64,000 bases of DNA from a virus (IMGVR_UViG_3300020200_000015:18961-82960), one strand, 5' to 3'. Positions 3,379 to 57,571 are shown, counted from the first letter of the stretch. Made by a program: numbers and translations. Notes: generated by a model from the sequence alone, not told the origin.

Positions 3379-3398
3379 GTCTGGTAGTACCTTCGACT

Positions 3399-4019: not shown

Positions 4020-6178
4020 CTGTTTTCCCTCAGAACAACAACATCTGTCATGGCATAGCTACCCTTTTCAGTCCTGCGACCGAAGGCTTGGATAACGCTA
4101 CCGACCTTGACGCGATGCTTAGACTTAGGCCAATCGCTCGGCCAAACAATCACATCCATCTCACCATCAGCAGTTAGCAGCGAGACGAATGCCATCATAC
4201 CGCTCTTAGCCTGGTGCTCCTTGACCCTAGATACCATGCCGCCAACCATGGCACATGTAGGTTGTTTCGCCGACTCTGGCGTAATGCATTTCGCAAGCTG
4301 CTCTTTGAAATGAGCAAGCGGATTATGCACCAGGTAGAAACCAAGCACATCTTTCTCTTTAGTGGCAAGCTCTCCGAGAGTTACCTCATCGTGCACGCTC
4401 GACTTGCACAGGTGCTTGGCAATGCTAGCTCTATCGCCGAAGCAATCGAGCGCGCCGCCAAACACGAGGCCGCTGATCTGGTTGGCGTTTAGCTTCACTC
4501 GACCAATGAATTCGTACTCATCAGAATACGGACGACGCTCAATAATCTGCTTGGACTTGCTGCCAACATGCTTGATGCACTCAAGCCCCATACGGATAGC
4601 GCCATCTTCGATCGAATAGCTCTCGGCGCTCTTGTTGACATCTGGCTGAAGAATCTTAATGCCAAGCCGATCACACTCTTTGATGTAGATCTCTTTGCTC
4701 TTGGTTTGCAATGCGCTGCACATGAATTGCAGCGGGTAATGCTGCTTCATGAACATGTCAGCGTATGCAATGTAGCCATAGCATACAGCGTGACTCTTGT
4801 TGAAGATGTACTTCTGGCAGGCAAGGATCTTATCCCACAGAGCCTCGACTGCCATCTCCTCAAAGCCCTTGGCAATGCAGCCAGCCTTGAAGTCATCGTA
4901 CACTTCTGACAGACCCTTATTGCTGCTGTTCGCAGTCTTGGCGATGATCTTTCTCACCTTGTCAGACTTGGCCATGCTAAAGCCTGCAATGTCAACGCAA
5001 ATTCGCATGACCTGCTCTTGGTAGAGAATGACGCCGTGCGTGTCCGATAGGATAGGCTCAAGCTCCGGCACAATGTAGCGCGCACTACCCTCATTGCGGG
5101 CAGTGATAAACTGGCTCACATCAAGTCCAGGGCGAATTAGAGCGTTGACAGCAGCAACATCACGAAATTGAATATCACTCAGACTCTGCAGAATGCTAAC
5201 CGACTTAAGCTCTTCAAACTGAAAGACTGCAACGGTTTCGCCTCGTTCGAATCCCTTGAGCGTATCCTTGTCGTCAAGTGGCAAGTTGTAGAAATCAATC
5301 TCGCTGCCAACCATCTTGATTGCGCGGCTGATGATTGAAAGATTATCGACAGTCAAGATGTCAAGCTTGACATAGCCAAGGCTATCAAGCTCTTCACCAT
5401 CCCATCCGGTAGCTAGCTGTCCGGTTACGGCAGCTTCGCCGGGTGGTCGCTGCATAGGTATCTCAGCGCCCATAGGGCCACGAGACAAAATCACAGCGCT
5501 TGGGTGGGTCGTTAGCTGGCGAACAAAACCTTGCAGAGACCTGGCGTAGAGGAAGAGTTCTGGGTACTTGTCCTCGTAATCCTTCAACGATGGCGACTCT
5601 TCAAACGCCTCATCGAATGTCTTAGCGTCTCCGATCAGCTTGGTGATTACCTTCACCTCGTTGAACTCGAGCTGATACACCTGCGACAGCTCATCAATCG
5701 CACTCCTCGGCTTGTAGATCGATGGCACGCCAACCTTGGCAATGCGATTGAGACCGTACTTGCCACGCAAGTAATCAATCACCGCATCACGGTCGCTAAA
5801 GTCAGTGTCAATATCTGGCAAGCTGATGCGCTCTGGATTCAAGAAGCGCTCGAAGATCAACCCAAACTTCAACGGATCGATCGTCGTAATGCCTGACAAG
5901 AAGACAACTAGGCTACCGGCAGCCGAGCCTCTACCTGGGCCAACTACGATCGCATTCAGCTTCGCCCAACGAATGTAGTCGGCGATGATCAGAATTACGC
6001 TCGAGTACCCACTGTTATTAAATACCTTGATTTCGTGCTCAAGACGCCGATAGTATTCAATCGGCGGAGCGAAGTACTTGCCCGACTTGATATAGCTCTG
6101 CAGATTCTCTCTGCAGAGATTGTAGAGACGCTGATTATCAGTTACGGCAACGGTGCCTGCTTCGTTGTCCCTAGACAT
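4016..6178 (-). CDS. dnaE: DNA polymerase III alpha subunit, catalytic/HhH/OB part lacking the PHP domain
   Basis: GPGRGSAAGSLV, FERFLNPERISLPDIDTDF, KLDIL, LYQEQVM, FNKSHA and a C-terminal OB fold (MAFVSL). Confidence 0.95.
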   Translation of the reverse strand: MSRDNEAGTVAVTDNQRLYNLCRENLQSYIKSGKYFAPPIEYYRRLEHEIKVFNNSGYSSVILIIADYIRWAKLNAIVVGPGRGSAAGSLVVFLSGITTIDPLKFGLIFERFLNPERISLPDIDTDFSDRDAVIDYLRGKYGLNRIAKVGVPSIYKPRSAIDELSQVYQLEFNEVKVITKLIGDAKTFDEAFEESPSLKDYEDKYPELFLYARSLQGFVRQLTTHPSAVILSRGPMGAEIPMQRPPGEAAVTGQLATGWDGEELDSLGYVKLDILTVDNLSIISRAIKMVGSEIDFYNLPLDDKDTLKGFERGETVAVFQFEELKSVSILQSLSDIQFRDVAAVNALIRPGLDVSQFITARNEGSARYIVPELEPILSDTHGVILYQEQVMRICVDIAGFSMAKSDKVRKIIAKTANSSNKGLSEVYDDFKAGCIAKGFEEMAVEALWDKILACQKYIFNKSHAVCYGYIAYADMFMKQHYPLQFMCSALQTKSKEIYIKECDRLGIKILQPDVNKSAESYSIEDGAIRMGLECIKHVGSKSKQIIERRPYSDEYEFIGRVKLNANQISGLVFGGALDCFGDRASIAKHLCKSSVHDEVTLGELATKEKDVLGFYLVHNPLAHFKEQLAKCITPESAKQPTCAMVGGMVSRVKEHQAKSGMMAFVSLLTADGEMDVIVWPSDWPKSKHRVKVGSVIQAFGRRTEKGSYAMTDVVVLRENR

Positions 6179-6726
6179 GCAGAGTACTTACCCGATTCGC
6201 CGTCGTAGATGAACAAACCTGCGGCAACACATTGCGTGAGCACCTCATAGATTACAAGCAGATCATTCGGCTTGAGGGATGAAATGGTATTGAGTTCTTG
6301 GACGAGTCCAGCGATAGTCATGTCATCTTTGCTAGCAACTGCATCATAGATGACATAGCTCATCGAGCCACTTCTGTACGGGTTGCCTGTGCGCTTGAAC
6401 TCGTGTGCCCAACGCCAAGGCAGCGAGCTTTTGATGTAGTCGGGAAGCTCGACATCATCAATCTCTTTCTTCTCGATCGCTACGTTCTTAGGAATCGACC
6501 TAACGGCGTCAAAATGCTCTCGCTCTTTCGCAGATACGAAAGAGGAGATGTCAAGCTTACCGACAGGCTCTGGCTCAGGCTGCTTGACATCACGCTCAAA
6601 GTCAACCGAGTAAACGATGTGGCACTTCTTGCAGACAGCCTCATCTTTGCCTTGGTAGAAAACGCTAGCAGTCGAATCGCAAGCTGAGCAGTCGCCTACA
6701 ACGTCACCAATCTTAAGGTGTTCCAT
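6142..6726 (-). CDS. Hypothetical protein with N-terminal Zn ribbon
   Basis: CSAC...CKKC; tightly packed within the operon. Confidence 0.6.
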   Translation of the reverse strand: MEHLKIGDVVGDCSACDSTASVFYQGKDEAVCKKCHIVYSVDFERDVKQPEPEPVGKLDISSFVSAKEREHFDAVRSIPKNVAIEKKEIDDVELPDYIKSSLPWRWAHEFKRTGNPYRSGSMSYVIYDAVASKDDMTIAGLVQELNTISSLKPNDLLVIYEVLTQCVAAGLFIYDGESGKYSACLGTTKQAPLP

Positions 6727-6976
6727 CGTTCAGATAGTCGATAAGCGGGCTGATCTTCCCTTCTTCATTCTTGGCAGCAGTCTTCTTGCTACGCTCAAGA
6801 GCTACCAAGTCAATGCTTCCAAACGACACGCCGCCTTTTGAGCTGGCAGCTACCGCAAGGTTTGACTTGCCCTCAGCAATGCTGAGGAGCTTGTCGCCAA
6901 CATTCGTAGTCTGCTTACGTGAGACGACCTTGATTGGGTCGCGCACGTTTTTGTCGTCTTCGAATAGCCCGGTCAC
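6713..6976 (-). CDS. Hypothetical protein (probable GTG start overlapping the clamp stop codon)
   Basis: GTGA start/stop overlap; fills the gap between neighbouring genes. Confidence 0.5.
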   Translation of the reverse strand: MTGLFEDDKNVRDPIKVVSRKQTTNVGDKLLSIAEGKSNLAVAASSKGGVSFGSIDLVALERSKKTAAKNEEGKISPLIDYLNDGTP

Positions 6977-8094
6977 TGCTGGATGCAGGTGATCAAGTAG
7001 GTAAAGCCTTCCTCTTCGATCCAAAGCTTGCCGTCGCTTTGCACATTGCATACGACAGAATCGGGGCTTTGAGTAACAATCGCGCCGTCAAGGAAGTTGT
7101 TTACCTGATACGAATACTTGGCGATAACGCCGTCGCCCATGTCTTCGAGATCACCTGGCATCTTGAAGGAGCTAGCAGTGATGGTCTCACTGCCCTCAGC
7201 ACGATTGCTGATCGACAAGTGCAGCTCAACCTTGTCGTCCTTCTTAGTAATCTCGATGTTGAGCGACTTGTAGACTTGATCGGTCAAGATCATCAATCGA
7301 TTGATGACGCCGATGAATTCTTGCTTAGGAATCGTGATGAGAACTCCCTGCTGCTTGGTTGACAAGAAGTTCTTGTATGGGACAAACTTGGCATCAATCA
7401 GTCGCACACTAGCGATGAGGTTGATATCCTCACAAATGATGACAACCTGCTTGGCGTTCGTACTGAGGCCAAGAGTTACGTCGCCATGACAATACTCAAG
7501 AATGCCGCCGAACAACGGCATCAGCAAGATAGAGTCGCCCGTGTAGGCAATCGGCGTATTGGCAACACTCAGACGCCGATTGTCAGTAGCGGCAAAGTTG
7601 CCATCGAAGTTCACACCCTGGTAGCTGATCTTCGTCACATCCTTGCTGACGGCAACAACAGCCTTTGCCCAGGGATGTTGAAGTGCAGAGGCGTCACAGC
7701 GACCAATCACATTATGCGCATAATCGTTGACCGGGAACTCCGAGGGGTCAGCGTAGCGCGGAAGCTCGTACTTGCCGTTTGTGACGACGACAATCGGGCC
7801 GTTGATCTTATCTTGGCGAATGTCAACGTCTGCTGTTGTGCTAGCCTTCAAGATAGCAGACAGCAGACGGTACTCAACGAGGAAGTGCTCTGGGAAATCG
7901 TCAACGTTAGCGAGTGCAAGGTCGCCATAATCGACAGTCAAGAAAGCGTTGAAGTCAGTTGTACTAACAAGCAAACGCCTCGTCTCACGATTCAGACGAA
8001 ACTGCACATAATCGGCAACCTTCATGATTTTGTTGCCAACCGCAGTCCCCAAGATATTGAGAATGCCAACCAGACGATCTCTATTCAGAATCAC
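6973..8094 (-). CDS. dnaN: DNA polymerase III beta sliding clamp-like protein
   Basis: 373 aa with STTD, SEFP, AATDNRRLS and RLIDAKFVPYK motifs typical of beta clamps; lies between the two dnaE halves. Confidence 0.8.
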   Translation of the reverse strand: MILNRDRLVGILNILGTAVGNKIMKVADYVQFRLNRETRRLLVSTTDFNAFLTVDYGDLALANVDDFPEHFLVEYRLLSAILKASTTADVDIRQDKINGPIVVVTNGKYELPRYADPSEFPVNDYAHNVIGRCDASALQHPWAKAVVAVSKDVTKISYQGVNFDGNFAATDNRRLSVANTPIAYTGDSILLMPLFGGILEYCHGDVTLGLSTNAKQVVIICEDINLIASVRLIDAKFVPYKNFLSTKQQGVLITIPKQEFIGVINRLMILTDQVYKSLNIEITKKDDKVELHLSISNRAEGSETITASSFKMPGDLEDMGDGVIAKYSYQVNNFLDGAIVTQSPDSVVCNVQSDGKLWIEEEGFTYLITCIQQ

Positions 8095-10533: not shown

Positions 10534-11143
10534 TTTTGATTCTAACTTTCAAAATTGATTCTACCGCCGGCTGGATCCTGCTATACAGTACGTGGCGCAC
10601 GCGACTTGTCAAGATGCCGAGCCTACCAGCAACAGCCTCTGGTGGATTACCTTGACGAAGCAGATCGAAAATCTTGCGGTCATCAGGCTTCAGCAAGTTA
10701 GAGACGGCATCACAGATATCGTTACCGTGAACTACGTCGTTGACATCTGGCTGAATCAATTCAGGCTCGGTGATGTAGTCGAACGACGACATCTCATCTG
10801 AATCTGTCTCGCCCAAGATTGGGATGATGGCACCCTTCGGCTTACGCTTCGCAACATTGGCAGCGTACTTCTCATCAATCATTGCGTTGCGAACGTAGGT
10901 GATGAAGAGCTTCAAGAACCTTCTCTCATTGTGCTCTTCAGAAAATCCGTCCTCGTAGACGAACTTGATGCAAGCCTCATGAAGCTTGACTAGCGCGAGG
11001 TTGTACAGACTGTCAACATCCTCAACTCGCTTCAACATTGCGTCACGCGAATAGGGCATGACAATACTCCGAATCATTTGCGCAAGCTTCTTCTCGATTT
11101 CGTTGAAGCCGACAGGTTTCTTGTTGATGATGATTGCTAGCAT
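10526..11143 (-). CDS. RNA polymerase sigma-70-family-like factor
   Basis: GGGAGG RBS before ATG at 11143; region-2-like FITYVRNAMIDE and C-terminal HTH LKPDDRKIFDLLRQG..PEAVAGRLG. Confidence 0.65.
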   Translation of the reverse strand: MLAIIINKKPVGFNEIEKKLAQMIRSIVMPYSRDAMLKRVEDVDSLYNLALVKLHEACIKFVYEDGFSEEHNERRFLKLFITYVRNAMIDEKYAANVAKRKPKGAIIPILGETDSDEMSSFDYITEPELIQPDVNDVVHGNDICDAVSNLLKPDDRKIFDLLRQGNPPEAVAGRLGILTSRVRHVLYSRIQPAVESILKVRIKNA

Positions 11144-11228
11144 TTGCCTCCCTAACGCTTGGCAACAGGCTAACCGCAACGCCATTGCAGGCAAGCGCAA
11201 AGCAAACTTTTTTTAGCCGCAAGCCAGT

Positions 11229-12290
11229 TCACTTTTTAACCTGCGTAACTTTGTGGCGTGTAACAGTTAACGGTCCAGCCAACTGATCAGACTCATAATG
11301 GCAGTACCGAGTCCCAAAATCAATTGCATGAAATAACTCTTCTGGCGTGCAGTCTCCAGGATCCTTGCCGATTGGGCACATGTAGATCCATGCAGCTTTT
11401 CCGACAGTTGGGATCATTCTATCGACCAGATCCCAACCACGCAAGCCATCAAGGTCTGGCATGATGCCGTGATTGTCAAAGTCTTTGAGTAGTCGCAACT
11501 GCTGATCACTAATCATGTTAGTGAAGCAAGCCATCGGATGAACACTACCCAACGTCAGCGACTCGATCTTAATAGCATCGAGAATCGACTCGACCATGAT
11601 GTACGAGCGCGCTTCAAGACAACTATCGTAGTTGAACAGAATCTCACCCTGCGGCGAGTTCTTGGGATAGCGCTTCGCGCCACCCTTCTTAGGCTGAGCG
11701 TAGAAGACGCTTCGCAACTGCCCGCGAAACTTGATAGGTATGACGATGGCATAGCCGATAGACTGGCTCATTGTGCAGCCAATCTCGAACTTGTCCATGT
11801 ACTCTGGCGTTATGTGACGCTCGGTAGTCAGCCATTCCCTAGCTGCAATCGACTGATTATCATGGCACTTGGTAATCAGCTTGTAGTCGTCAGGAAGATC
11901 AAAGTACTCAATAGGCTTGTCATCTTCAATCTGCGGCTTGGCTATCTTCAACTTAAGAACAAGCGCATCAGTGCCATCAACATTGGCGCTACCAAAACGC
12001 TCTTGCAGAACATCGATAGCTTGTGGAAAGCTGATGTTCATGCAGTGGCTAATGAGATGGACTAGGTTGCCTTTGAAGTTGCAAGCCCAGCAATTGAAAA
12101 GCCCTTTGAACTTTCCAGACTCAGCAATGCTGATTCTCTTCTTATGCCTGTCCTCGGCATGATTATCAGTTGGACAAGCAAAGTACAGCTCATGCCCATT
12201 CTTATTTGATCGCCTCTCAAAGTCGAGGCCAAGATTAGTCAGAACCAGCGCCACCTCTGAGCGCTGCATTAGCAAGCCAAAGTCAATCAT
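11229..12290 (-). CDS. dnaG: DNA primase (Zn-binding domain plus TOPRIM)
   Basis: CP..H...CWAC, VESILD, PDLD and KDPGD. Confidence 0.85.
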   Translation of the reverse strand: MIDFGLLMQRSEVALVLTNLGLDFERRSNKNGHELYFACPTDNHAEDRHKKRISIAESGKFKGLFNCWACNFKGNLVHLISHCMNISFPQAIDVLQERFGSANVDGTDALVLKLKIAKPQIEDDKPIEYFDLPDDYKLITKCHDNQSIAAREWLTTERHITPEYMDKFEIGCTMSQSIGYAIVIPIKFRGQLRSVFYAQPKKGGAKRYPKNSPQGEILFNYDSCLEARSYIMVESILDAIKIESLTLGSVHPMACFTNMISDQQLRLLKDFDNHGIMPDLDGLRGWDLVDRMIPTVGKAAWIYMCPIGKDPGDCTPEELFHAIDFGTRYCHYESDQLAGPLTVTRHKVTQVKK

Positions 12291-43507: not shown

Positions 43508-45163
43508 TTAGTCTTTCAGCAAGTCGTAGATTCCCTTCAGCGAATCTGGTTTGTTGTACTTTCTAGAGTCGTACAAGAACTTGGGACCAAGCTTCTCGAA
43601 CGACTTGCGGTCGGCGATACCCATTTGAGGCACCCAACCGCCCGCCGGTAGTATGATACCTTGAATCTCTTCTTGAGCCCAGACTGATGCAATACAACTA
43701 TCGACAACGTCATCGCCCAACTTGTTGTTGAGCATCGAATACTTGTTGTAGCCGCCAGGAATTCGTTCAGCTTTGATATTGCCGAACTGGCTTAACATCT
43801 TCTGCACAATCGTGTAGCGGCTGTCATCATCGACAATCGCCGGGTAGCGAAACATGCACCCATACACGTACTTCTGCATTCTCTCATGCATCAAGTGCTT
43901 TTGCGGGCCTGTGAAGCGCAGCGGCTTTATGTACCAATCATCCCAGCCGTCTTTGCCTTGCTTATTCTCATACCTACGTACATCGATCCTAGTCAGACCG
44001 TTATCGTGCAGCGCTCGATTGAGATCATACAAAAATGCGGTGTCGAAGGCGTCGCCAAACCCGCCAACTGGTCTGAAAAATGCAATCAACCTCACCAAAT
44101 CGGTGATAATGGTCTCAGGACGCGAATTAGCACCCCACTCTTGTGAGTGGAGCCAAAACACCTGATTGTTAATTTTCTCTGTGAACGTAACAGACCATGA
44201 CGACGCATCCTCTCCGGAACCTGCGCCAGCGCAGTCGATGCCAATGGTCACATCACCTCTTGCCTGGTATGTGATCTTCGGATCGAGAACTATATCGATC
44301 GGAGTGTACTCGTTGTCGGCGCAGTTACGCAGCCATCTATCGGGGTAAAACGAGCTTGATTCAACGTACAGCACCAAGTAGGTTCTTGCGAACTGGTGCG
44401 GCGTTGACATTGCCTGGAACAACTTGATGTCGTTCTCAGGAATGATGCCCATTGCAACGCCATGCCAAGCGTTGAACTTGGGCAGCACATTGAACCTCAG
44501 CTTGACGCTACCGTTGATTTCCTCTGGGTGCTCAATCTTGTAGATGTTGCCGATGCCTTTGATTGTGCCCGTGATAACGCGCAGGCAGGCACTATGGCAT
44601 CCATAATCATGCTGATCTTTGATTTGCGAGCCAGTCGGGTAGATGCGGGTTAGGAACGACTCCCAATCTATATCATCGAACTCTTCAAGCCATTGGTGCG
44701 TTGCGCCCAGACCGTCAACTGATGACGCCTGACCTTTGGCTTGAATCAGGCTTCGATTCATGAATTCGATGTGCTCCTTGCCGATACCGTCGCCGAGGCG
44801 TTCATCAAGGTATGCGAGGGCAATCTCTGAATTCATCACCATATCGTTCATGTAGCGCAGGTTGCGCTTGCTCTGCTCAATGGCAGGGCTATGAACGTTG
44901 ACTTCGCTGTATGGCAGGCACATTGCCTCCTCAAGAAAGTAAGCCGAAACTGTGAACGACTTACGAATACGGCGGCTTCCAATCAGCATGTGGCTATCAC
45001 CCTTCTCGTCCATCTCATTCATCCAATGGACTTGGTGCGGGTTCAAGTTGATGCCGGTGATATGCTTGTGCCAGAGGTAGTGATCGCCTCTGAACTTCAT
45101 GATTTCACGTTCAACCGTCTTGCGGAAGTTGCCCGTGACATTCTTTCCAAGCCGTACTCTCAT
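43508..45163 (-). CDS. Terminase large subunit
   Basis: PHQ, Walker A-like SRRIRKS, WLEE, ITGT, nuclease GID and DDVVDS. Confidence 0.85.
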   Translation of the reverse strand: MRVRLGKNVTGNFRKTVEREIMKFRGDHYLWHKHITGINLNPHQVHWMNEMDEKGDSHMLIGSRRIRKSFTVSAYFLEEAMCLPYSEVNVHSPAIEQSKRNLRYMNDMVMNSEIALAYLDERLGDGIGKEHIEFMNRSLIQAKGQASSVDGLGATHQWLEEFDDIDWESFLTRIYPTGSQIKDQHDYGCHSACLRVITGTIKGIGNIYKIEHPEEINGSVKLRFNVLPKFNAWHGVAMGIIPENDIKLFQAMSTPHQFARTYLVLYVESSSFYPDRWLRNCADNEYTPIDIVLDPKITYQARGDVTIGIDCAGAGSGEDASSWSVTFTEKINNQVFWLHSQEWGANSRPETIITDLVRLIAFFRPVGGFGDAFDTAFLYDLNRALHDNGLTRIDVRRYENKQGKDGWDDWYIKPLRFTGPQKHLMHERMQKYVYGCMFRYPAIVDDDSRYTIVQKMLSQFGNIKAERIPGGYNKYSMLNNKLGDDVVDSCIASVWAQEEIQGIILPAGGWVPQMGIADRKSFEKLGPKFLYDSRKYNKPDSLKGIYDLLKD

Positions 45164-47529: not shown

Positions 47530-48267
47530 TCAAACTTTCCTGTAGCGCTCTTCAGGAGGCCAATTCCAACCGTGCACTTCGCCTCTTGAAGCCTGCCAGT
47601 GCCAAACAATAGCGTTCTCATCAGATGGCGCTACCAGCACAGGGTTCTTCTTATCGCCAACAAGAGCGGGCGGCAAGGAAGCCCATTTGACTCCAAGGTC
47701 GATGATTGGCGGAGCTTGCAGCTTCGCAATCATGTTCTGCATCACAGTCTGGTCGTTATTGTGCCAGTTGGTTTGGACAGGCTTCATCTTCTTGATGCAA
47801 GCCGTACCCCAGTCTTTGAACCACTCGTAGTTCTCAGGCGTGCGACGGGCAGCAATGGTGCCAGCCATCCAGTGATTGACGTTGTACACCAAGCCTAGGT
47901 CGCAGTCGTCAAGATCGTGTACTACGAGGTTCAGATCGCCACGGGTTCTTGAGTCAACGTCAGTCCAAAGCACTGTGTCGGTGCAGTAGTCGGAATCAAG
48001 CACTGCGCTGATCCAACACGGCTTTAGGAAGCCGATGTTGTTCCAGTTAGTCAGCAGCTTGCCGTTAACCGGAGGACGAAACTCATAGATGTGAGCAACC
48101 TTGTCCGAGTCGCTTCGCTGGACGTAAACGTCGATGACTGACTCGCCCGGCTTTGCAAGACCGACGATCATCATCACAGGCTTGGAATGCTGCTTGATGG
48201 ACTTTACCCAACCGGGAAGCTCTTTGATGTACCTGTTCCCAATCGCAAACGTCGTGACGGTAATCAT
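47530..48267 (-). CDS. Nucleotide-diphospho-sugar transferase (GT-A fold)
   Basis: FLKP.WI, VLWTDVD (DxD), AGTI, NDQ and a C-terminal HWQASR. Confidence 0.75.
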   Translation of the reverse strand: MITVTTFAIGNRYIKELPGWVKSIKQHSKPVMMIVGLAKPGESVIDVYVQRSDSDKVAHIYEFRPPVNGKLLTNWNNIGFLKPCWISAVLDSDYCTDTVLWTDVDSRTRGDLNLVVHDLDDCDLGLVYNVNHWMAGTIAARRTPENYEWFKDWGTACIKKMKPVQTNWHNNDQTVMQNMIAKLQAPPIIDLGVKWASLPPALVGDKKNPVLVAPSDENAIVWHWQASRGEVHGWNWPPEERYRKV

Positions 48268-49645: not shown

Positions 49646-49973
49646 ACCTAGTACTACAAGATTCTAGGCAAGTGATGGCCATGACTCATAGCGTGAAAGC
49701 GGGGTGACAGGTAAAGAGCGATAACCCATAGCGTGAAAGCGGGGTCGGGCTGAGTCGGGCTGAGTCTATCAGTACCGTGGAACCCAGATCAGTGAGGCTA
49801 GTAAGGATGAGAAGCTGAGGAGCTGAGGGGCTGAGGGGCTGAGAGGCTGACTAGTTGGCTGGCTGACTGGATGTGATCTTTACTATGGTCAAAGGTAGAT
49901 CAACTTTTGAAAGCATATTCTGGATGAGGTAGGTGGCGCGGTTGGGCGTCCGGTCGTGTCGTACTATTTGCCA

Positions 49974-50007
49974 GGTGGGGGGCGGGGGACCGCCCCCGCC
50001 CCCACCC
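49974..50007. terminator. Strong GC hairpin downstream of the Ala-rich gene
   Basis: GGGGGCGGGGG-ACCG-CCCCCGCCCCC (11-bp perfect stem); no clear U-tract. Confidence 0.5.
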
Positions 50008-50013
50008 TAAGGG

Positions 50014-50478
50014 CTACGCCTTAGGGGCGGTAGGGTGCAACGACCAACGTTGTGCGCCCGTATACGGGCGCGCAATATAGTGCCCCGCACGTGCGCCGGG
50101 TGTGCTACAACCCGGTTTGGCGGGGACGTTATGCACGACGATAGTAGCGTCGCTGGCGGCGGCGGTTGCCGTCGCCAGTTGCACGGCGGCGCAGGCGTGG
50201 ACGCTACTACCGGCAGGCACGGTCGGCCAGCCAACGTTGGCGCCACGCGGCGCCCGGTAGTTGCCTGCGACCGGCACCACAAAGGCGACGCCGTGCACGA
50301 CGGCAACGACGCCAGCAGCAAGGGCGACGCCAACGTCGCCGGCGGGTACCGTAACGGCGGCGGCGGCAGTCGCCACGGCAGGGGGCACGGCAGGGACCGT
50401 GGCAGGGGCCGCCTTGGCGGCGGCAGGGGGCACGGCAGGGACCGTGGCAGGGGACGGGTTGTTACGTTGCGTTGCCAT
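50014..50478 (-). CDS. Ala/Val/Pro-rich hypothetical protein with no Glu (probable start MATQRNN)
   Basis: Preceded by the cassette-type hairpin CCCGCGCA-TGG-TGCGCGGG; PATVPAVPPA occurs twice. Confidence 0.55.
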   Translation of the reverse strand: MATQRNNPSPATVPAVPPAAAKAAPATVPAVPPAVATAAAAVTVPAGDVGVALAAGVVAVVHGVAFVVPVAGNYRAPRGANVGWPTVPAGSSVHACAAVQLATATAAASDATIVVHNVPAKPGCSTPGARAGHYIARPYTGAQRWSLHPTAPKA

Positions 50479-50559
50479 ACTGTGCTTGCCGGACGACCCG
50501 CGCACCATGCGCGGGTAGCCCGTGCACGTGGCAGGGGCTGTTGTCCGACGACCCCACCT

Positions 50560-50907
50560 TAGCAAATACCATGCCACGCACGGCATGACGGCCTGCTTTT
50601 TTTTTGCGATTGTCGCAAGCCCTTATATCGCAACGGGTTACGGCCAATAAATATTTTCGCTGCACTATAGTGCATCGCATGGCTGGTCGGCCTTACTGTT
50701 ACGACATGGTAACGTTTTGGGCCATGCGCGCAAGTCTTTGCACGACAAGCACTTGCGGATGGCTGTTTGTTACGCTAGCCACACTGCCAATGTGCCATGC
50801 GCTAGCAAATACCATGCCACGCACGGCATGACGGCCGACTTTTTTTTGCGATTGTTGCAAGTCCTTATATTACAGGTATTTGCGACCACATAGCAAATAC
50901 CATGCCA
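50560..50907 (-). promoter_or_regulatory. Three identical sigma54-like -24/-12 boxes TGGCATGGTATTTGCTA
   Basis: Copies at 50560-50576, 50803-50819 and 50891-50907; exact GG-N10-GC spacing. Confidence 0.55.
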
Positions 50908-50920
50908 CGCACGGCATGAC

Positions 50921-50985
50921 GGCATGACAGGCTAGCATGACAGGCTGGCATGACAGGCTGGCATGACAGGCTGGCATGACAGGCT
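50921..50985. repeat. 13-bp tandem repeat GGCATGACAGGCT, 5 copies
   Basis: Read directly; one unit starts with A. Confidence 0.9.
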
Positions 50986-51352
50986 GGCAGGGGAGGGGAG
51001 GCTGCCAGGATGGCAGGGCTGCCAGGATGGCAGCCCGGCGTTCATTCAACCCTTTTATGAATAACAGAACTGAAAAACAGAACTGAATAACTGAATGAAT
51101 GAAATTCATCCCTCAAATTCAAGTCAGCATAACTGAATGCTCAGTCTCAACAGCAATTCACTCTATCAATGCAGAACTGAATGATGCAGTCTACTGAAGC
51201 TCAGTAGATTATATCTGCTTGAATTCAGTCAGTCACTATGACTATGAGGTGCTGACTTCTTTCATTCATTCTTTCTTTCAGTCACTCTATCATTCATTCT
51301 TTCATTCACTCATGACTGAATGAAACATTGCTGCACATGGCGGCATGGCCGC

Positions 51353-51673
51353 CTAGTCGAACCACAACTTTAGCATAGGCTCGCCGCCTTGCGGGAATAT
51401 GTTGACGGACAAGTAACCGTCAGGCAACTCGTCCGGCAACTGCCGCAAAGCAGCGACGAAGGCAGCGTAGCTGTCGGCAGTATGCCAGCCGTGCGTCAAG
51501 TACACGCTAACGCCGTCTGCCGTGCCATCGCCGTCGGCAGTCTCGTCGGCATGCATCGACAGCACATAGTTAAATACGTCAACATGTGCATGGCAGCACT
51601 CGATGACGGCACGAAAGAAGTTAGCGTACTCCTTGCTAGCGTTGTACGTAAAGGTGGGGATCGGCTTCTGCAT
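51353..51673 (-). CDS. Cassette gene 1, paralogue family A
   Basis: Start follows the cassette RBS; shares CC..H, GV.V.L..GW, ALR.LP..LPDG and KLW with genes 2 and 3. Confidence 0.75.
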   Translation of the reverse strand: MQKPIPTFTYNASKEYANFFRAVIECCHAHVDVFNYVLSMHADETADGDGTADGVSVYLTHGWHTADSYAAFVAALRQLPDELPDGYLSVNIFPQGGEPMLKLWFD

Positions 51674-51680
51674 TGTTTCG

Positions 51681-51785
51681 TTGTCCTTTGCGCCGCACCA
51701 TGCGGCGCAGGTGTAGCATACTATACGGTGCAAGGGTTGCAAACACTAGCCAACACATTCATTACCACCACCACTTCATTCATTC
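51681..51785 (-). promoter_or_regulatory. Repeated promoter-hairpin-RBS cassette, copy 1
   Basis: TTGCAA-N16-TATGCT, hairpin GCGCCGCA-TGG-TGCGGCGC, AAAGGACAAC. Confidence 0.85.
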
Positions 51786-52108
51786 AATCACTCAGTCACT
51801 CTTTCAATCATTCATTCACTCACTCTTGATGTCATGACTTCATTCCAGAGTGACACGGTGAGGTTCATATGACTTAGTCACACTGAGTTCACTCATTCAG
51901 TTAGAACATATCTGCCTGAGTTCATTCAAATAGATATGTTCTACCTGAGTTCATTCACCGTTGAGTTCAGTCAGTCACTCAGTCAGCGTGTAACTGAACT
52001 GAATTCATTCTAGCATTCATGTGCGCATAACTGAACTGAATTCATTCTAGCATTCATGTGCGCATAACTGAACTCATGAGCCAGTGCACCTAACGGCACA
52101 AGCCGTGG

Positions 52109-52462
52109 CTAGTAGTACCACAGCTTGAAAACCGGGTGCCCTTTAGGGGCAAACAAGTTGATTACAAGGTCGCCGTCGGGCAGCGCGTGGCTAGCCATGC
52201 ACGGGCAGCGACCAACGTCGGGCAGCGCACGCAGGGCGGCGATGAAGTCGGCATAGACGCTTGCTTGCCAGCCGTCGTTGAGCCACACGGTTACACCGTT
52301 GGCTCGCAGTTCCCCGGCTTCGTCGCCAGTATACCTGATGTACCACGTGAAACTGTCGCTGTGCTTTTGGCAGCAAGCGACAATGTGCTGAAGCAAGTTG
52401 TCGTAGCCGTCGCAGTTGGCGACAAAGGGTGGCACCGTTGCCATTGGTTGAGGGTCGTGCAT
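52109..52462 (-). CDS. Cassette gene 2, paralogue family A
   Basis: Highly similar to 52670..52978. Confidence 0.8.
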   Translation of the reverse strand: MHDPQPMATVPPFVANCDGYDNLLQHIVACCQKHSDSFTWYIRYTGDEAGELRANGVTVWLNDGWQASVYADFIAALRALPDVGRCPCMASHALPDGDLVINLFAPKGHPVFKLWYY

Positions 52463-52575
52463 GTTGTTGTCCTTTGCACCGCACTATGCGGCGCAGGTGT
52501 AGCATACTATACGGTGCAAGGGTTGCAAGCACTAGCCCACACATTCATTACCACCACCACTTCATTCATTCAATC
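52463..52575 (-). promoter_or_regulatory. Repeated promoter-hairpin-RBS cassette, copy 2
   Basis: Near-identical to copy 1. Confidence 0.85.
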
Positions 52576-52637
52576 ACTCAGTCACTCTTGACTTCAATCA
52601 CCCTTGAGTTCATTCATTCAGTAGATTGTCAGGCACT

Positions 52638-52666
52638 GAAAAAGCCACCCCGCTAGGGGTGGCTTG
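52638..52666 (-). terminator. Intrinsic terminator (duplicated at about 54620-54646)
   Basis: AAGCCACCCC-GCTA-GGGGTGGCTT with a U-run on the minus strand. Confidence 0.8.
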
Positions 52667-52669
52667 AGG

Positions 52670-52978
52670 TTAGTCGTGCCACAGCTTGAAAACCGGGTGC
52701 CCCTTGGGGGCAAACAAGTTGACTACAAGGTCGCCGTCGGGCAGCGCGTTGGGCAGCCACCGCAGGGCGTCGATGAAGTCGGCGTATGTGCTTGCTTGCC
52801 AGCCGTCGTTGAGCCACACGGTTACGCCACAAGCTTGGTCGCCAGTATACCTGACAAGAAACGTAAGGGCGTCGCTGTGCTTTTGGCAGCAAGCGACAAT
52901 GTGCTGAAACAAGTTGTCGTAGTCGTCGCTGTTGGCGATAAAGGGTGGCACCGTTGCCATTGGTTGAGGGTCGTGCAT
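52670..52978 (-). CDS. Cassette gene 3, paralogue family A (no Glu)
   Basis: Cassette RBS upstream; paralogy with genes 1 and 2. Confidence 0.8.
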   Translation of the reverse strand: MHDPQPMATVPPFIANSDDYDNLFQHIVACCQKHSDALTFLVRYTGDQACGVTVWLNDGWQASTYADFIDALRWLPNALPDGDLVVNLFAPKGHPVFKLWHD

Positions 52979-53090
52979 GTTGTTGTCCTTTGCGCCGCAC
53001 TATGCGGCGCAGGTGTAGCATACCATACGGTGCAAGGGTTGCAAGCACTAGCCCACACATTCATTACCACCACCACTTCATTCATTCATT
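52979..53090 (-). promoter_or_regulatory. Repeated promoter-hairpin-RBS cassette, copy 3
   Basis: Near-identical repeat. Confidence 0.85.
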
Positions 53091-53164
53091 CACTCTTGAG
53101 TTCAGTCACTCTTGACTGACTTCATTCATTCACTCACCCTAGGCAGGCAAAGCAAACCTGGGCG

Positions 53165-53452
53165 TTAGCCCAGGTCGGCCTCAACCAGCACGGCGGTTAC
53201 ACCCTCACCGTCGGCACTGTTGCCGGCGGTGTCGAACAGGTACGCCGCCTTGTCGTGAGACATGCCCTGCGCCGTCTCCTCGTCCAACATGCCATCGGCA
53301 ACCAGCTTGCCGACCGTCGTGGTCTCAAGCTGCGCGTCGTACTGCGACGGCCCAAGGCCGTTGAGAATGCGACCGCACCACAGCAGGGTTTGAGCGTCGG
53401 GGTTGGTCCCCAGCGCATTGAAAAACACACACACAAGTCGTTTGTTAGCCAT
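53165..53452 (-). CDS. Cassette gene 4, acidic hypothetical protein (start MANKRL)
   Basis: AAGGAC RBS after the cassette hairpin. Confidence 0.7.
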   Translation of the reverse strand: MANKRLVCVFFNALGTNPDAQTLLWCGRILNGLGPSQYDAQLETTTVGKLVADGMLDEETAQGMSHDKAAYLFDTAGNSADGEGVTAVLVEADLG

Positions 53453-53458
53453 GAGAAC

Positions 53459-53585
53459 TGTCCTTGTCGTTTGGTTGTGCGACGCACTATGCGGCGCAGG
53501 TGTAGCATACCATACGGTGCAAGGGTTGCAAGCACTAGCCCACACATTCATTACCACCACCACTTCATTCATTCATTCATTCATT
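53459..53585 (-). promoter_or_regulatory. Repeated promoter-hairpin-RBS cassette, copy 4
   Basis: Near-identical repeat. Confidence 0.85.
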
Positions 53586-53622
53586 CACTCACCGCTGAAT
53601 GATTGACTGATTTCATTCAGTC

Positions 53623-53897
53623 CTGAGTTCAGTTAGAACATATCTACCTGAGTTCAGTTAGAACATATCTACCTGAGTTCAGTTAGAACATATCTACATT
53701 CACTCAGTTAGAACATATCTACCTGAGTTCAGTTAGAACATATCTACCTGAGTTCAGTTAGAACATATCTACATTCACTCAGTTAGAACATATCTACATT
53801 CACTCAGTTAGAACATATCTACATTCACTCAGTTAGAACATATCTACATTCACTCAGTTAGAACATATCTACCTGAGTTCAGTTAGAACATATCTAC
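53623..53897. repeat. 25-bp tandem array of 11 units in two variants
   Basis: [CTGAGT or ATTCAC]TCAGTTAGAACATATCTAC in the order AAABAABBBBA. Confidence 0.95.
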
Positions 53898-54065
53898 ATT
53901 CATTCATCGCGGCACTTGAAGTCATTCTATACATATGCGCGCATAACTGAATGATCTCTCATCAACCATATGCGCGCATAACTGAATGATCTAATTCATT
54001 CCAGAGTCTTGGAATGCAATCAGTCACTCAGTCTTGAGTGATGTGCAAGTAGCGGCGGGCGCAAA

Positions 54066-54422
54066 CTACTGTTTGCGCCATGGGTCACTTAGCCATTTGC
54101 TGTTGCTACCTTGACTGTACAGCTTGCTGCCGTCAGCCAGCGTCGCCCAGGCAACCCAAAAGCCACGCGATGAGCTAACCACGGTCGCCAAGCAACGGCC
54201 TTGGTGCCAAATAGCGTCGCTACCCTCAAGGTTAGTAACCACCACCCAACCGTCACCAACTGGTTGGGCGTCGGCGTCGTCGTTGCACTGCTGGCTGATG
54301 TTGTTGTCGCCGCTACCCAGCAGCACGCACAGCTCAACAATTGCCTTTAACAAACCGCCCTGCCCAGCGGGCAAGCGTTTGCCTTCGTCCAAGTACAAGC
54401 CCAATGCCTTTTGTTCGTCCAT
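54066..54422 (-). CDS. Cassette gene 5, hypothetical protein (start MDEQKA)
   Basis: Cassette RBS upstream. Confidence 0.7.
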   Translation of the reverse strand: MDEQKALGLYLDEGKRLPAGQGGLLKAIVELCVLLGSGDNNISQQCNDDADAQPVGDGWVVVTNLEGSDAIWHQGRCLATVVSSSRGFWVAWATLADGSKLYSQGSNSKWLSDPWRKQ

Positions 54423-54514
54423 GTGTTGTTGTCCTTTGCGCCGCACTATGCGGCGCAGGTGTAGCATACCATACGGTGCAAGGGTTGCAAGCACTAGCCC
54501 ACACATTCATTACC
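54423..54514 (-). promoter_or_regulatory. Repeated promoter-hairpin-RBS cassette, copy 5
   Basis: Near-identical repeat. Confidence 0.85.
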
Positions 54515-54582
54515 GCAGTCACTCACTCTTGACTTCACTCACTCTTGAGTTCATTCCAGAGTCTTGGAATGCAATCAGTCAC

Positions 54583-54700
54583 TCTTGAGTTCATTCATTC
54601 AGTAGATTATCAGGCACTGAAAAAGCCACCCCGCTAGGGGTGGCTTGAGGTTAGTCGTGCCACAGCTTGAAAACCAGCCTACGGTGCAAGGGCTACAAGC
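54583..54700 (-). pseudogene. Relic cassette: 3' end (FKLWHD*) and terminator of a family-A gene fused to a promoter fragment
   Basis: 54583-54675 duplicates 52603-52694; it is followed by TACGGTGCAAGGG from the cassette promoter. Confidence 0.75.
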
Positions 54701-54713
54701 AACTGCCTTGTTC

Positions 54714-55007
54714 TCACAGCGCCACCTCAACCACCACCGCATTGGCGGTTTCATCCTCGAACTCGCTGGCTGCTTCCCACACAGCGCATGCGGTGTCAGG
54801 CGGCAAGCCAGCACCAACGCTGTCATCACCCCACAGGTCACGCACAGCGCCAAGGGTGGTGTTGAAATCCAGCTTAATTTCCTTGGTGTAAGGCCCATGC
54901 CCTTCATGCAGCTTACCTTCGGTAAAGAAAAGCTGGGTGAACTGGTGCTTGCCGAAGTTGCAGTGCGCTATCAGCTGCACCTTGTTTGCTTTTGGTTGTG
55001 TTGCCAT
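54714..55007 (-). CDS. Cassette gene 6, hypothetical protein
   Basis: Cassette RBS upstream. Confidence 0.7.
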   Translation of the reverse strand: MATQPKANKVQLIAHCNFGKHQFTQLFFTEGKLHEGHGPYTKEIKLDFNTTLGAVRDLWGDDSVGAGLPPDTACAVWEAASEFEDETANAVVVEVAL

Positions 55008-55096
55008 GTCGTTGTCCTTTGCGCCGCACTATGCGGCGCAGGTGTAGCATACTATACGGTGCAAGGGTTGCAAGCACTAGCCCACACATTCATTAC
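55008..55096 (-). promoter_or_regulatory. Repeated promoter-hairpin-RBS cassette, copy 6
   Basis: Near-identical repeat. Confidence 0.85.
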
Positions 55097-55192
55097 CCCC
55101 GCTGCACTCATTCAACTGCGCCTGCTTTACCCTGCGCTGAATGAATGAATTCACACACAAGGCAAGCCACCTTGTTGAAGGGTGGCCGCCCA

Positions 55193-55459
55193 CTACACCA
55201 CAAACATCAGGTCAGGGTGTGCGGGCTTGTACTGCTGAGTGCCAGCGGCCTTGTTGAGCGCGTCGCGCACAACAGGGTTTTGGTGGCCATCAGCAAACTT
55301 AATGAGGTTGTTAACCATGGCATCAAGCTGGGCGCGCATAACGCGCACACTTTCAACCAACGCGGCGTCGCCCATGCTTTCAGCATTTGCGGCGATGTAA
55401 TCATAGCGCAGCTTAAAGCGCTGCACTTGGTTGCCAATGGCAAGTAGGTAGTCGTCCAT
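55193..55459 (-). CDS. Cassette gene 7, hypothetical protein (start MDDYLL)
   Basis: AAGGAC RBS after the hairpin. Confidence 0.7.
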   Translation of the reverse strand: MDDYLLAIGNQVQRFKLRYDYIAANAESMGDAALVESVRVMRAQLDAMVNNLIKFADGHQNPVVRDALNKAAGTQQYKPAHPDLMFVV

Positions 55460-55469
55460 TTGAGTGTCG

Positions 55470-55560
55470 CTGTCCTTGTTGTTGGTGCGGCGCACCATGC
55501 GCCGCAGGTGTAGCATACCATACGGTGCAAGGGTTGCAAGCACTAGCCCACACATTCATT
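55470..55560 (-). promoter_or_regulatory. Repeated promoter-hairpin-RBS cassette, copy 7 (compensatory stem variant)
   Basis: Same promoter; hairpin GCGGCGCA-TGG-TGCGCCGC. Confidence 0.85.
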
Positions 55561-55979
55561 TACAGCAGCGCCTTCACCTTGGCCCAGTACTTCACCGTGG
55601 CGTCCTTGCGGTGTCCTTTCGGCCCACCATTGTGAATACGGGCCAGCTTCTCACGGTCACCGTCGGCCACAGCTTGCTTGGCGTACCTGAGCCAGTAGGC
55701 AACCACGCACCTCTCAGCATAAGTGCGGCCTTTCACGTCGTCGTATGTACCACCCAGCTCAGTGCAATGGTCGGTAGCGTCCTTCCAGTACACGCGCCAC
55801 AGCTGAAAGCTGCCAAGAGCCTTGCCCTTGTCGCCAACAGCCTCATTGTCGTTGCCACTTTCCACGGTGGCAATGGCATCAAGTAGCGGGCGCAGCTTTG
55901 TGCGCGCCTCATCGAGTTCGGCTACCGTTGACCCCTTGGGCGCAACGGCAAGCATGAGCATAAACGCTAGTGTCCTCAT
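55560..55979 (-). CDS. i-type (destabilase-like) lysozyme/transglycosylase with a hydrophobic N-terminus
   Basis: AIATVESG, G.FQL...YW.DA, ARIHNGGPKG and YW.KV; start MRTLAFMLMLAVA after an AAAGGAC RBS. Confidence 0.75.
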   Translation of the reverse strand: MRTLAFMLMLAVAPKGSTVAELDEARTKLRPLLDAIATVESGNDNEAVGDKGKALGSFQLWRVYWKDATDHCTELGGTYDDVKGRTYAERCVVAYWLRYAKQAVADGDREKLARIHNGGPKGHRKDATVKYWAKVKALL

Positions 55980-56275
55980 CGTCGCTGTCCTTTGTTGGTG
56001 CGCCGCACCATATGCGGCACTAGGTATATTAGCAGTTTGCGCCTTCAACTTAAGGGCAAAATAACATTCATCCCCGCCGCTGAATGAATGACTTCAGCCC
56101 CTGAGCGCTGAATGAATGAATTCAGTCAGTCATCACCTGAGCGCTGAATGAATGAATTCAGTCAATCAGTCACTCGCTCATTCAACCATCTGGTCTGGCT
56201 GAACGAATGAACGAATGAATTCCAGAACTCAGCTGCTACGCGCACGCGCATAACTGAACTACTGAAACATCAATG

Positions 56276-56465
56276 CGCGCATAACTGAACTGAACCAGAT
56301 AGCCACTCAATCAGATTCAACCTGTCACGCGCATAACTGAACTGAGCCAGATAGCCAATCAATCAGATTCAACCTGTCACGCGCATAACTGAACTGAGCC
56401 AGATAGCCAATCAATCAGATTCAACCTGTCACGCGCATAACTGAACTGAGCCAGATAGCCAATCA
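56276..56465. repeat. 52-bp tandem repeat, about 3.6 copies
   Basis: Units start at 56276, 56328, 56380 and 56432; each begins CGCGCATAACTGAACTGA. Confidence 0.9.
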
Positions 56466-57571
56466 TTTCCTCTGACCACGGTGCGCGCATAACCGAATCC
56501 ACCGGAGAGAGATAAATACTTTGATGATTAAGAGCGAGAACTAAGTGATCCTCAGGTTTATATCGATCCCCCACCGGATCGATAAGCCCATAGCTCCTAT
56601 CTTGATGATTAAGAGCCAATCCAGGCCCAGATCCCCAAGATGATTGAGTTCATGAGCTTTTATATGTTTTGCCACCGGATCGATAAAAGCCTGCTCTTAT
56701 CTTGACGGATTGACTATTACCCACACACAACAAAGAGCGGGTTCTCAGTCACAACCCGTGAATGAATGACTTCATGATATCCGTCAGGGTATTTATGAGT
56801 TTCGCCACCGGATCGATAAAGCCTACCCATTTTCAAGGCTAAATGATGAAAGTTAGACCATTCTCATCATAAATAGCCTCTCAGTCCACATTTTCTGGCT
56901 AAATGATGAGCCATGGAGTAGTCTGACTGTCAGATTGTGGGTGTACGAGCACCCCCTCAGACAATCCTCAGAGTACTCTCAACCCCCTCATCGCCCCCAT
57001 CCATCACCCTCCCCGCATCTCACCCCATTCCCGCACTTCTCTCACACTACCATCATGGGCTTCTCTCCCCCTTCGTCTCATCTACACTACCATTCCTATC
57101 ACCCTACTACTCATATCCTAGTAGTTCAGCTACTAGCGTGACTCTCTCCTGCTATCAGTTGTTCATCGACCAGCTTCATCTACAACTGACTGATCACTAC
57201 TAGCGGTCATCCGTACTCATTTACAAATGCCACTGATCAGCGTAAAGGCTTCTTGATGATGTGTCAGTCATCATCACTGAGATTTCCCAAACGGGAAGTT
57301 CAGAGGATTTCTCAGGCTTCAAACTTGAGTCACATTTACTATCCTTCATCTTTCAAAAGCCATTCACGGCTGTATTTTTGCCTTGTGGGTTTACTACCAC
57401 CCTTTTATTTCTTTGCAATCTCAACGCCTTCACCGTTGTAATCAGTACGCTTGAGTATGCACCGGTAAATACTAGCTAGGGTACGCAAGCTCATGATCCA
57501 GTCCTTTGTCTCACAGTGATCATGAATCTTTGATATCCTCCCGAAGAACTGGACTGCGTGGTAATCACTCA

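Follow-up and report, generated by a model that had tools for sequence, protein, structure and literature searches.

Why would a phage keep a row of its transcription units, from promoter to stop codon, nearly free of a short word that recurs every few base pairs along its genome? The question is raised by the array at 49.9-56.5 kb of the DNA analysed here, a 64,000-nucleotide window (contig bases 18961-82960) of the IMG/VR record IMGVR_UViG_3300020200_000015, a linear contig of 82,960 bp that is rated 74% complete by CheckV and belongs to an uncultured phage of the long-tailed type with every gene on the minus strand. Positions are in window coordinates unless marked contig. An earlier note, made from the sequence of the window, had reported that the genes of this array avoid GA[AGT]/[ACT]TC (both strands' form of the scored trinucleotides, hereafter GAD/HTC). 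The depletion proved genuine, strong and shaped by selection, and we give about an even chance to the answer that the phage keeps these promoter-to-stop units clear of the word at which it modifies its own guanines. The array comprises nine units, listed below with the observed/expected ratio (O/E) of GAD/HTC in each open reading frame (ORF) of the cassettes.

49927-51036, unstranded: island A (geneA with its leader and a block of iteron-like repeats), the interval used for its GAD/HTC counts
50014-50478, minus strand: geneA, 154 amino acids (aa); N-terminus rich in Pro and Ala, C-terminal domain about 100 aa long
50497-50515, minus strand: hairpin in the 5′ leader of geneA, with an 8-bp GC stem and a 3-nt loop, of the same type as the cassette hairpins
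50560-51033, unstranded: GA-poor repeat block, with three copies of an element of about 33 bp that carries a CATGCC/GGCATG hairpin, plus two arrays
51353-51760, minus strand: cassette 1, ORF 51353-51673, 106 aa; O/E 0.57 in the ORF and 0.26 in the block
52109-52546, minus strand: cassette 2, ORF 52109-52462, 117 aa; O/E 0.40 in the ORF and 0.13 in the block
52625-53062, minus strand: cassette 3, ORF 52670-52978, 102 aa, no Glu, with the conserved block; O/E 0.30
53165-53549, minus strand: cassette 4, ORF 53165-53452, 95 aa, with the block; O/E 0.51
54066-54508, minus strand: cassette 5, ORF 54066-54422, 118 aa, with the block; O/E 0.22, synonymous z −5.8
54714-55091, minus strand: cassette 6, ORF 54714-55007, 97 aa, with the block and the sole TGA stop; O/E 0.64
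55193-55559, minus strand: cassette 7, ORF 55193-55459, 88 aa, with the block; O/E 0.42
55560-56050, minus strand: cassette 8, ORF 55560-55979, 139 aa, with a divergent promoter block; O/E 0.63

Depletion of GAD/HTC in nine genes and their control regions

GAD/HTC sites are spaced 9.4 bp apart on average along the contig, at a density of 10.9 per 100 bp. Between 49926 and 50608, by contrast, a single site is present (GAT at 50140), leaving gaps of 214 and 468 bp, which bears out the near-absence that had been described for 50011-50600; island A as a whole holds 11 sites in 1110 bp, or 1.0 per 100 bp. At 49927-50607 the observed counts (expected in brackets) were 0 (10.9) for AGA/TCT, 0 (25) for GAG/CTC, 0 (10.9) for GAA/TTC and one for GAT/ATC, while GAC/GTC, at 27 versus 25 expected, was not depleted. 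The non-coding parts of island A harbour six sites versus 38 expected, and geneA itself has one where 21 ± 3.7 were expected under synonymous resampling, in which the protein is kept fixed and codons are redrawn from the phage's own codon usage. As had been claimed, neither geneA nor the ORF at 52670-52978 encodes any Glu. A metagenomic homolog of geneA (155 aa, 61% identical) was found, thus geneA is a real gene.

The other eight genes are affected as well. From left to right, the gene values run from 0.03 in geneA through those listed above for genes 1-8, a non-monotonic series that does not bear out the suggested relaxation of the depletion towards the right. The promoter and 5′-untranslated blocks have O/E of 0.13-0.35. 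In 300-bp windows sliding across the 83-kb contig the O/E averaged 1.13 (sd 0.26), and the 29 lowest windows all fell within 49.8-55.8 kb. Under synonymous resampling, nine of the nine cassette genes were depleted (z from −2.9 to −5.8), whereas the 64 other genes of the background gave a mean z of 0.2 (sd 1.15) and a minimum of −2.5. The depletion therefore outlasts correction for amino acids and codon usage, and the refuting outcome named in the earlier note, its loss after correction for GC and amino acids, did not occur. On the sense strand, GAD was found 57 times versus 134 expected and HTC 49 times versus 125 (O/E 0.43 and 0.39); since the two are equally depleted, the constraint acts on both strands.

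These counts bear directly on the simplest alternative, in which no reader of the word exists and the pattern is a by-product of GC-rich, Ala/Pro-rich genes that were acquired elsewhere and spread by duplication. The cassettes do contain 55-71% GC versus about 50% in the genome and 14.1% Ala versus 7.9%, and their promoter blocks, being 94-100% identical, amount to one observation. Yet the resampling holds amino acids fixed in nine different genes, the non-coding DNA of island A is purged too, and TTC and ATC drop in the cassettes while the remaining NNC codons increase. Moreover, a homolog of gene 8 found elsewhere (52% identical) has an O/E of 1.13 versus 0.68 in this phage, and an island of unrelated sequence in a relative (G001, below) obeys the same ban. 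A by-product of composition is thus scarcely likely.

The avoided word is GA/TC

The avoided word is best described as GA/TC, with GAC/GTC fully tolerated in the first unit, island A, only. In genes 1-8, GTC is depleted too (z −2.9), and the avoided word there is therefore GA/TC. In genes 1-8, the frequencies per kb, compared with the background, were 1.5 versus 8.2 for NGA codons, 8.4 versus 28.7 for xxG|Axx codon junctions, 2.7 versus 13.0 for TCN codons, 16.5 versus 32.8 for NTC and 6.1 versus 17.2 for xxT|Cxx junctions, so that all freely choosable GA/TC are cut 2- to 5.5-fold. GAN codons (Asp, Glu) are unreduced, at 41 versus 40 per kb, but switch from GAT to GAC; outside island A, GAC persists in Asp codons and in the AAGGAC ribosome site. 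Furthermore, AGA is used zero times in the cassettes, the share of GGA is 0.01, and serine shifts to AGC, with a TCN share of 0.23 versus 0.57. When all 64 trinucleotides of the sense strand were contrasted without bias, the most depleted were mainly words that contain GA/TC, and GGC/GCC is not avoided (O/E 1.2-1.4).

The word could instead be read in the messages, which would avoid GA and UC on account of an endoribonuclease or of decoding effects, among them the queuosine status of tRNA and the choice between NAC and NAU. The four amino acids whose codon boxes are decoded with queuosine all prefer NAC over NAT in the cassettes relative to elsewhere (Asp 0.87 versus 0.42, Asn 0.88 versus 0.53, His 0.74 versus 0.62, Tyr 0.76 versus 0.66), the phage makes the queuosine precursor preQ1, and the purge is confined to transcribed units. 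But this preference accounts for GAT alone, and not for GAA, GAG, AGA, GGA, TCN, CTC, TTC or ATC; the equal depletion of GA and TC on the sense strand is unexpected for a reader of a single strand; and the promoter, which is not transcribed, is purged too. We regard avoidance at the RNA or translation level as decidedly unlikely.

The purge follows transcription-unit boundaries

A block of about 90 bp is common to seven cassettes, and in order it consists of TTGCAA, 16 nt, TATGCT, a GC hairpin (8-bp stem, 3-nt loop), AAGGAC and ATG; in front of TATGCT stands TG in four copies and TAG in three. The promoters are predicted from sequence, and at eight of 12 matches to the sigma-70 consensus they lie under the threshold of a consensus scanner. 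The leaders of geneA and gene 8 are variants that carry a hairpin of the same type. From the −35 element to the ATG of the standard block, the sole GA/TC is the GAC of the ribosome site, which is indeed AAGGAC as earlier described; likewise, eight of the nine genes stop at TAG or TAA. An intrinsic terminator with a classic hairpin and T-run lies at the end of gene 3 (about 52625-52655).

The edges of the purge coincide with these units. It begins 16 nt upstream of the −35 element and runs to the stop codon, affecting both strands as far as the protein sequence permits. The 60 nt farther upstream contain three to nine sites (eight or nine in five of the seven mapped cassettes), and downstream the sites are back within 1-30 nt after the stop. 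TTGCAA-type promoters are confined to 51.7-63.2 kb on the minus strand, a distribution that fits a region read by the host polymerase.

The DNA between the units is made of tandem repeats, four of the spacers being as follows.

51037-51352, unstranded: spacer 1, AT-rich TTCA-type tandem repeats; O/E 1.49
51761-52108, unstranded: spacer 2, repeats including a 37-bp × 2.3 array; O/E 1.40
53550-54065, unstranded: spacer 5, with a 25-bp × 11 array at 53628-53906; O/E 1.57
56051-56500, unstranded: spacer 9, with 36-bp × 2 and 52-bp × 3.7 arrays, the right-hand limit of the array; O/E 1.50

The spacers had been described as saturated with the motifs. With 13.3 GAD/HTC per 100 bp versus 10.9 in the rest of the window (GA/TC 15.4 versus 13.8), and with O/E of 1.13-1.57 that stay within the upper tail of the genome, they are unpurged rather than saturated. 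As purged units alternate with unpurged spacers, the constraint applies per transcription unit and not per region, a point that cases with a single island cannot supply.

This alternation also bears on evasion of a host defence. Here a host nuclease would read GA words, be it a classical restriction enzyme or a modification-dependent, type IV-like one that cuts 7-deazaguanine DNA; the first-acting units would be word-free, and the spacers would tolerate the cuts or serve as decoys. Such an account suits units that are individually autonomous, each with its own promoter and some with a terminator, and it has a precedent in the first-step-transfer region of T5, which lacks EcoRI sites and shows that first-entering DNA can be site-free. 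It would also suit the contig depth of the array. At least 14 metagenome runs of lake water, dating from 2018, contain the phage sequence, and Logan contigs of four runs match unique cassette segments exactly; relative to both flanks, the depth of these segments (50400-56440) was 1.5- to 2.9-fold in two runs (X1, X2) and 1.0- to 1.8-fold in the other two (X5, X6). As to the first-injected DNA near a genome end that the earlier note suggested, the raised depth could reflect a terminal repeat or, alternatively, cassettes common to co-occurring strains.

However, two letters are far too few to make up a restriction site, the density of the spacers leaves the whole stretch cuttable, and a phage with a linear genome does not normally survive even one cut. 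Moreover, in island A the 4-bp palindromes without GA/TC are not avoided (81 observed versus 72 expected; GATC and TCGA are absent), on which ground restriction-site avoidance was rejected as the cause. The proposal of host restriction soaked up by decoy spacers is therefore not supported, in view of the length of the word, the palindromes and the ordinary spacer density, and defence evasion in general appears unlikely.

Guanine-modification genes and DpdA

The word GA is a published target of phage guanine modification. In Pseudomonas phage iggy, whose modified base is dPreQ0, DpdA inserts the base after replication strictly at GA, with about 97% of sites modified, and SalI sites are resistant, that is, GAC is modified (PMC10484667). 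Escherichia phage CAjan has dPreQ0 at GA and GGC (PMC7544227), and every deazaguanine phage examined encodes DpdA (PMC10516641).

Left of the window, the contig carries the deazaguanine pathway genes QueF, FolE, QueC, QueE and QueD, with the FolE-QueD set at contig 2572-7075. Pfam matches were GTP_cyclohydroI (5.9e-60), QueC (1.2e-64), PTPS (1.5e-32) and radical SAM/Fer4_12. Matches of QueE type in NCBIfam were under the curated cut-offs, and the QueF score exceeds the cut-off of TIGR03139, the NCBIfam preQ1-synthase model. With QueF present, a modified base of preQ1 type is probable. Four or five glycosyltransferases, a methyltransferase and a sigma factor (contig 10684-11316) are interspersed among these genes.

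DpdA was not found on the 83-kb, 74%-complete contig by queries with PF01702, PF20314, phrog_887 and CAjan DpdA, of which PF01702 and PF20314 are poor detectors for the family, failing even on the DpdA of relatives. The contig ends 231 bp past QueF. In three related genomes (G003, with 61% terminase identity, and the essentially complete G004 and G005, both with 46%), all of which carry QueC, QueF and DpdA, the DpdA gene lies 0.7-1.8 kb after QueF (phrog_887, E 5e-44 and 8e-36) and resembles CAjan DpdA with E from 1e-18 to 5e-11. This synteny, together with the incompleteness of the contig, makes it most likely that the phage itself encodes DpdA.

Another gene of the pathway region is that of a DUF932-like protein (363 aa; contig 801-1892), which lies between QueF and FolE and has faint DUF932 similarity. 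In G003 it is found between QueC and QueF, and 28 metagenomic homologs have 43-85% identity. As a hidden DpdA it was rejected: the model reached a predicted local distance difference test (pLDDT) score of 85.5, but it is not like tRNA-guanine transglycosylase, and neither a solved fold nor a PDB sequence matched. The protein may be a new component of the deazaguanine pathway.

Islands in related phages

No close isolate of this phage is known: among isolated phages, the nearest terminase is that of a Microcystis phage at just 28% identity, while the closest terminase homologs on other long contigs reach 94%. A DNA similarity search of 49.9-56.5 kb against 50,697 phage records returned zero matches, a search for the exact promoter-block pattern in viral contigs found none, and single-protein searches with the ORF at 47530-48267 and the terminase found no related loci. 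Five related genomes (G001-G005) were located through terminase alignment and not through single-protein queries.

In G001 (74% terminase identity), an 830-bp GC-rich island contains two GA/TC versus 94 expected, with GAC/GTC absent too. It lies 5.9 kb upstream of the terminase, a place equivalent to that in the window, and borders abruptly on DNA in which 17-18 sites occur per 100 bp. Its product is a Pro/Ala-rich protein whose gene lacks a Shine-Dalgarno sequence; geneA is also Pro/Ala-rich, and homology between the two was undetectable. G002 (76%) has mild depletion only. The islands of G004 and G005 are GC-rich and carry a similar Pro/Ala-rich gene, and there the step with the strongest depletion is AG/CT (O/E 0.33 and 0.37; z −4.8 and −4.3), which may represent a different dialect of the same ban. 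Apart from the mild depletion of G002, the available DNA of the other terminase-anchored loci (L010-L012, L014-L020 and L051-L059) contains no GA-free island. The G004 island (41.4-43.0 kb) and the G005 island (8-10.5 kb) are rich in CATG-type repeats.

Both the dialects and the repeats might point to a phage factor other than DpdA as the reader, such as a host-shutoff nuclease, a transcription blocker or regulators that the word would disturb, from which the cassettes escape. The islands of this phage and its relatives are indeed rich in CATG-type iterons (ATG/CAT O/E 1.7-2.3), suggesting dense protein binding, and the differing words of the relatives, AG/CT in G004 and G005, would suit a reader of this kind. 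Yet no such factor was identified; the cassette proteins have no family match save the lysozyme domain of gene 8, and the interiors of the ORFs are purged as strongly as control DNA, which this account leaves unexplained. We consider it improbable.

The two phages with validated GA modification were compared as well. In iggy (MN029011), the 989-bp main non-coding control region has a GA/TC O/E of 0.29 (36 versus 122), the lowest in its genome, and in CAjan that of the largest intergenic region is 0.59; no GA-free gene was found in either. The papers on iggy and CAjan (PMC10484667 and PMC7544227) make no mention of such depletion or of word-purged genes, and searching the literature turned up no description of such GA-depleted islands.

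A proposed explanation: units free of the phage's own modification word

Taken with the purge and its boundaries, the pathway genes, the syntenic DpdA of relatives, the published GA motifs, the G001 island and the GA-poor control region of iggy lend real support to the idea, also raised in the earlier note, of a phage base modification that marks GA sites. We infer that the DNA of this phage is modified and that GA is the word. DpdA would swap guanines in the packaged DNA for a 7-deazaguanine derivative at GA; the nine units would carry few or no modified guanines, and the spacers and the remaining genome would keep a normal density of sites. The units would thereby enter the cell as ordinary, unmarked DNA, and host machinery in its unaltered state could read them although the genome arrives fully modified. 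Such machinery may need unmodified units because position 7 of guanine faces the major groove of DNA. The remaining genes may be read once phage factors such as its own sigma factor appear, or after replication, from new copies still awaiting modification. Keeping the incoming genome readable for the host would be the most likely purpose of the purge; the block of host RNA polymerase suggested in the earlier note is likewise an inference.

Several observations weigh against this reading. DpdA is missing from the contig, as described. Each of genes 1-8 retains 7-23 GAD/HTC. The genes at 56.5-64 kb, which are probably early, are not purged, despite TTGCAA promoters in their range, and neither are the replication genes, which are needed before replication. 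GAC/GTC is tolerated in island A, though iggy modifies GAC, and the switch from GAT to GAC may in part be a general translational preference for NAC, as in that from AAT to AAC. G004 and G005 deplete AG/CT more than GA/TC although they bear DpdA, and CAjan lacks a GA-free gene. Finally, a comparison of 6-bp palindromes points both ways. Those without GA/TC are more avoided than those with it in this phage group (ratios 0.83, 0.85, 0.68 and 0.84), in the direction that GA-specific protection predicts and thus weakly in favour of the reading, but the test is null in both validated GA modifiers, iggy (0.97) and CAjan (1.02), and so carries little weight.

Compared with the known DpdA phages, the contig is alike in its FolE, QueD, QueE and QueC, in having relatives with phrog_887 DpdA beside such genes, in that the avoided dinucleotide equals the published target word, and, for iggy, in that the control region is GA-poor too. 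It differs in its QueF, in the interleaved glycosyltransferases and methyltransferase, in that DpdA is not on this incomplete contig, in that GGC is not avoided and GAC is tolerated in island A, and, relative to CAjan, in that whole genes are purged.

Other phages provide partial parallels. T4 combines hydroxymethylcytosine with Alc, and SPO1 combines hydroxymethyluracil with TF1 and phage sigma factors. Like them, this phage has a modified genome (predicted here) and a sigma factor of its own, and template chemistry would separate host-read from phage-read genes. In T4 and SPO1, however, the base is replaced everywhere and motif-free zones are not possible, whereas here the modification is predicted to be word-specific, with its placement set by sequence. 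Early regions of the T5 and T7 type consist of small genes of unassigned function with strong host-type promoters, and sites are avoided in the first-acting DNA. The array is alike in its small genes, host-type promoters, adjacent repeats and principle of site avoidance; it is unlike the T5 region in that the avoided word has two letters and is not a restriction site, in its unpurged spacers, and in that a terminal position is a candidate only. Pfam and PHROG matching found no homologs of T5 A1, A2 or dmp among the cassette proteins, and indeed no family match other than the destabilase domain of gene 8.

A broader form of the preferred reading, which we put forward tentatively, is that phages with guanine hypermodification at short words divide their genome by sequence alone into a modified bulk and a few word-free, host-readable units. 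The banned word would then possibly report the specificity of DpdA, namely GA with GAC tolerated here, every GA in G001 and an AG/CT-leaning word in G004 and G005. Under the same division, a ban that operates unit by unit might mean, again with less than even confidence, that the modified base disturbs expression itself and not merely DNA entry. If so, metagenomic sequence could by itself reveal, without chemistry, which word a DNA hypermodification enzyme targets, and 7-deazaguanine in the template would cost gene expression, a price paid for protection except in a few units. This would bear on how infection starts in modified phages, on which parts of their genomes are accessible to restriction and CRISPR, and on the design of expression cassettes.

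Additional features of the locus and its surroundings

Within the array, genes 1-3 are paralogs. The product of gene 8 has a destabilase/i-type lysozyme domain and a hydrophobic N-terminus, and a lysozyme-domain gene with its own strong promoter is unusual in a presumed early array; a co-occurring variant allele of this gene has about 25 differences and a different upstream sequence. The two arrays of the GA-poor repeat block in island A are 13 bp × 5.3 (50921-50989) and 17 bp × 2 (51000-51033), and the block may contain regulator or iteron sites. One further element lies downstream of gene 6.

54599-54680, minus strand: truncated second copy of the 3′ part of gene 3, terminator included, identical to 52618-52700

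This copy is a sign of recombination or duplication among the cassettes.

Elsewhere, the structural genes comprise the terminase (43508-45163), the portal, the capsid, a 1678-aa tape measure and a 2175-aa fibre, and the replication module comprises Pol A, a DnaB-like helicase, a primase, a RecA-like protein and SbcCD. In several related phages (P0046, P0051, P0065) the large terminase harbours an intein/homing-endonuclease insertion (PF14528, PF14890), which that of the window is without. Between the structural module and geneA, the segment at 49650-50010 contains six GCTGAGG-type repeats, a 10-bp × 2.3 array, a 19-bp direct repeat and a perfect 11-bp G/C hairpin, which could be a packaging or termination signal.

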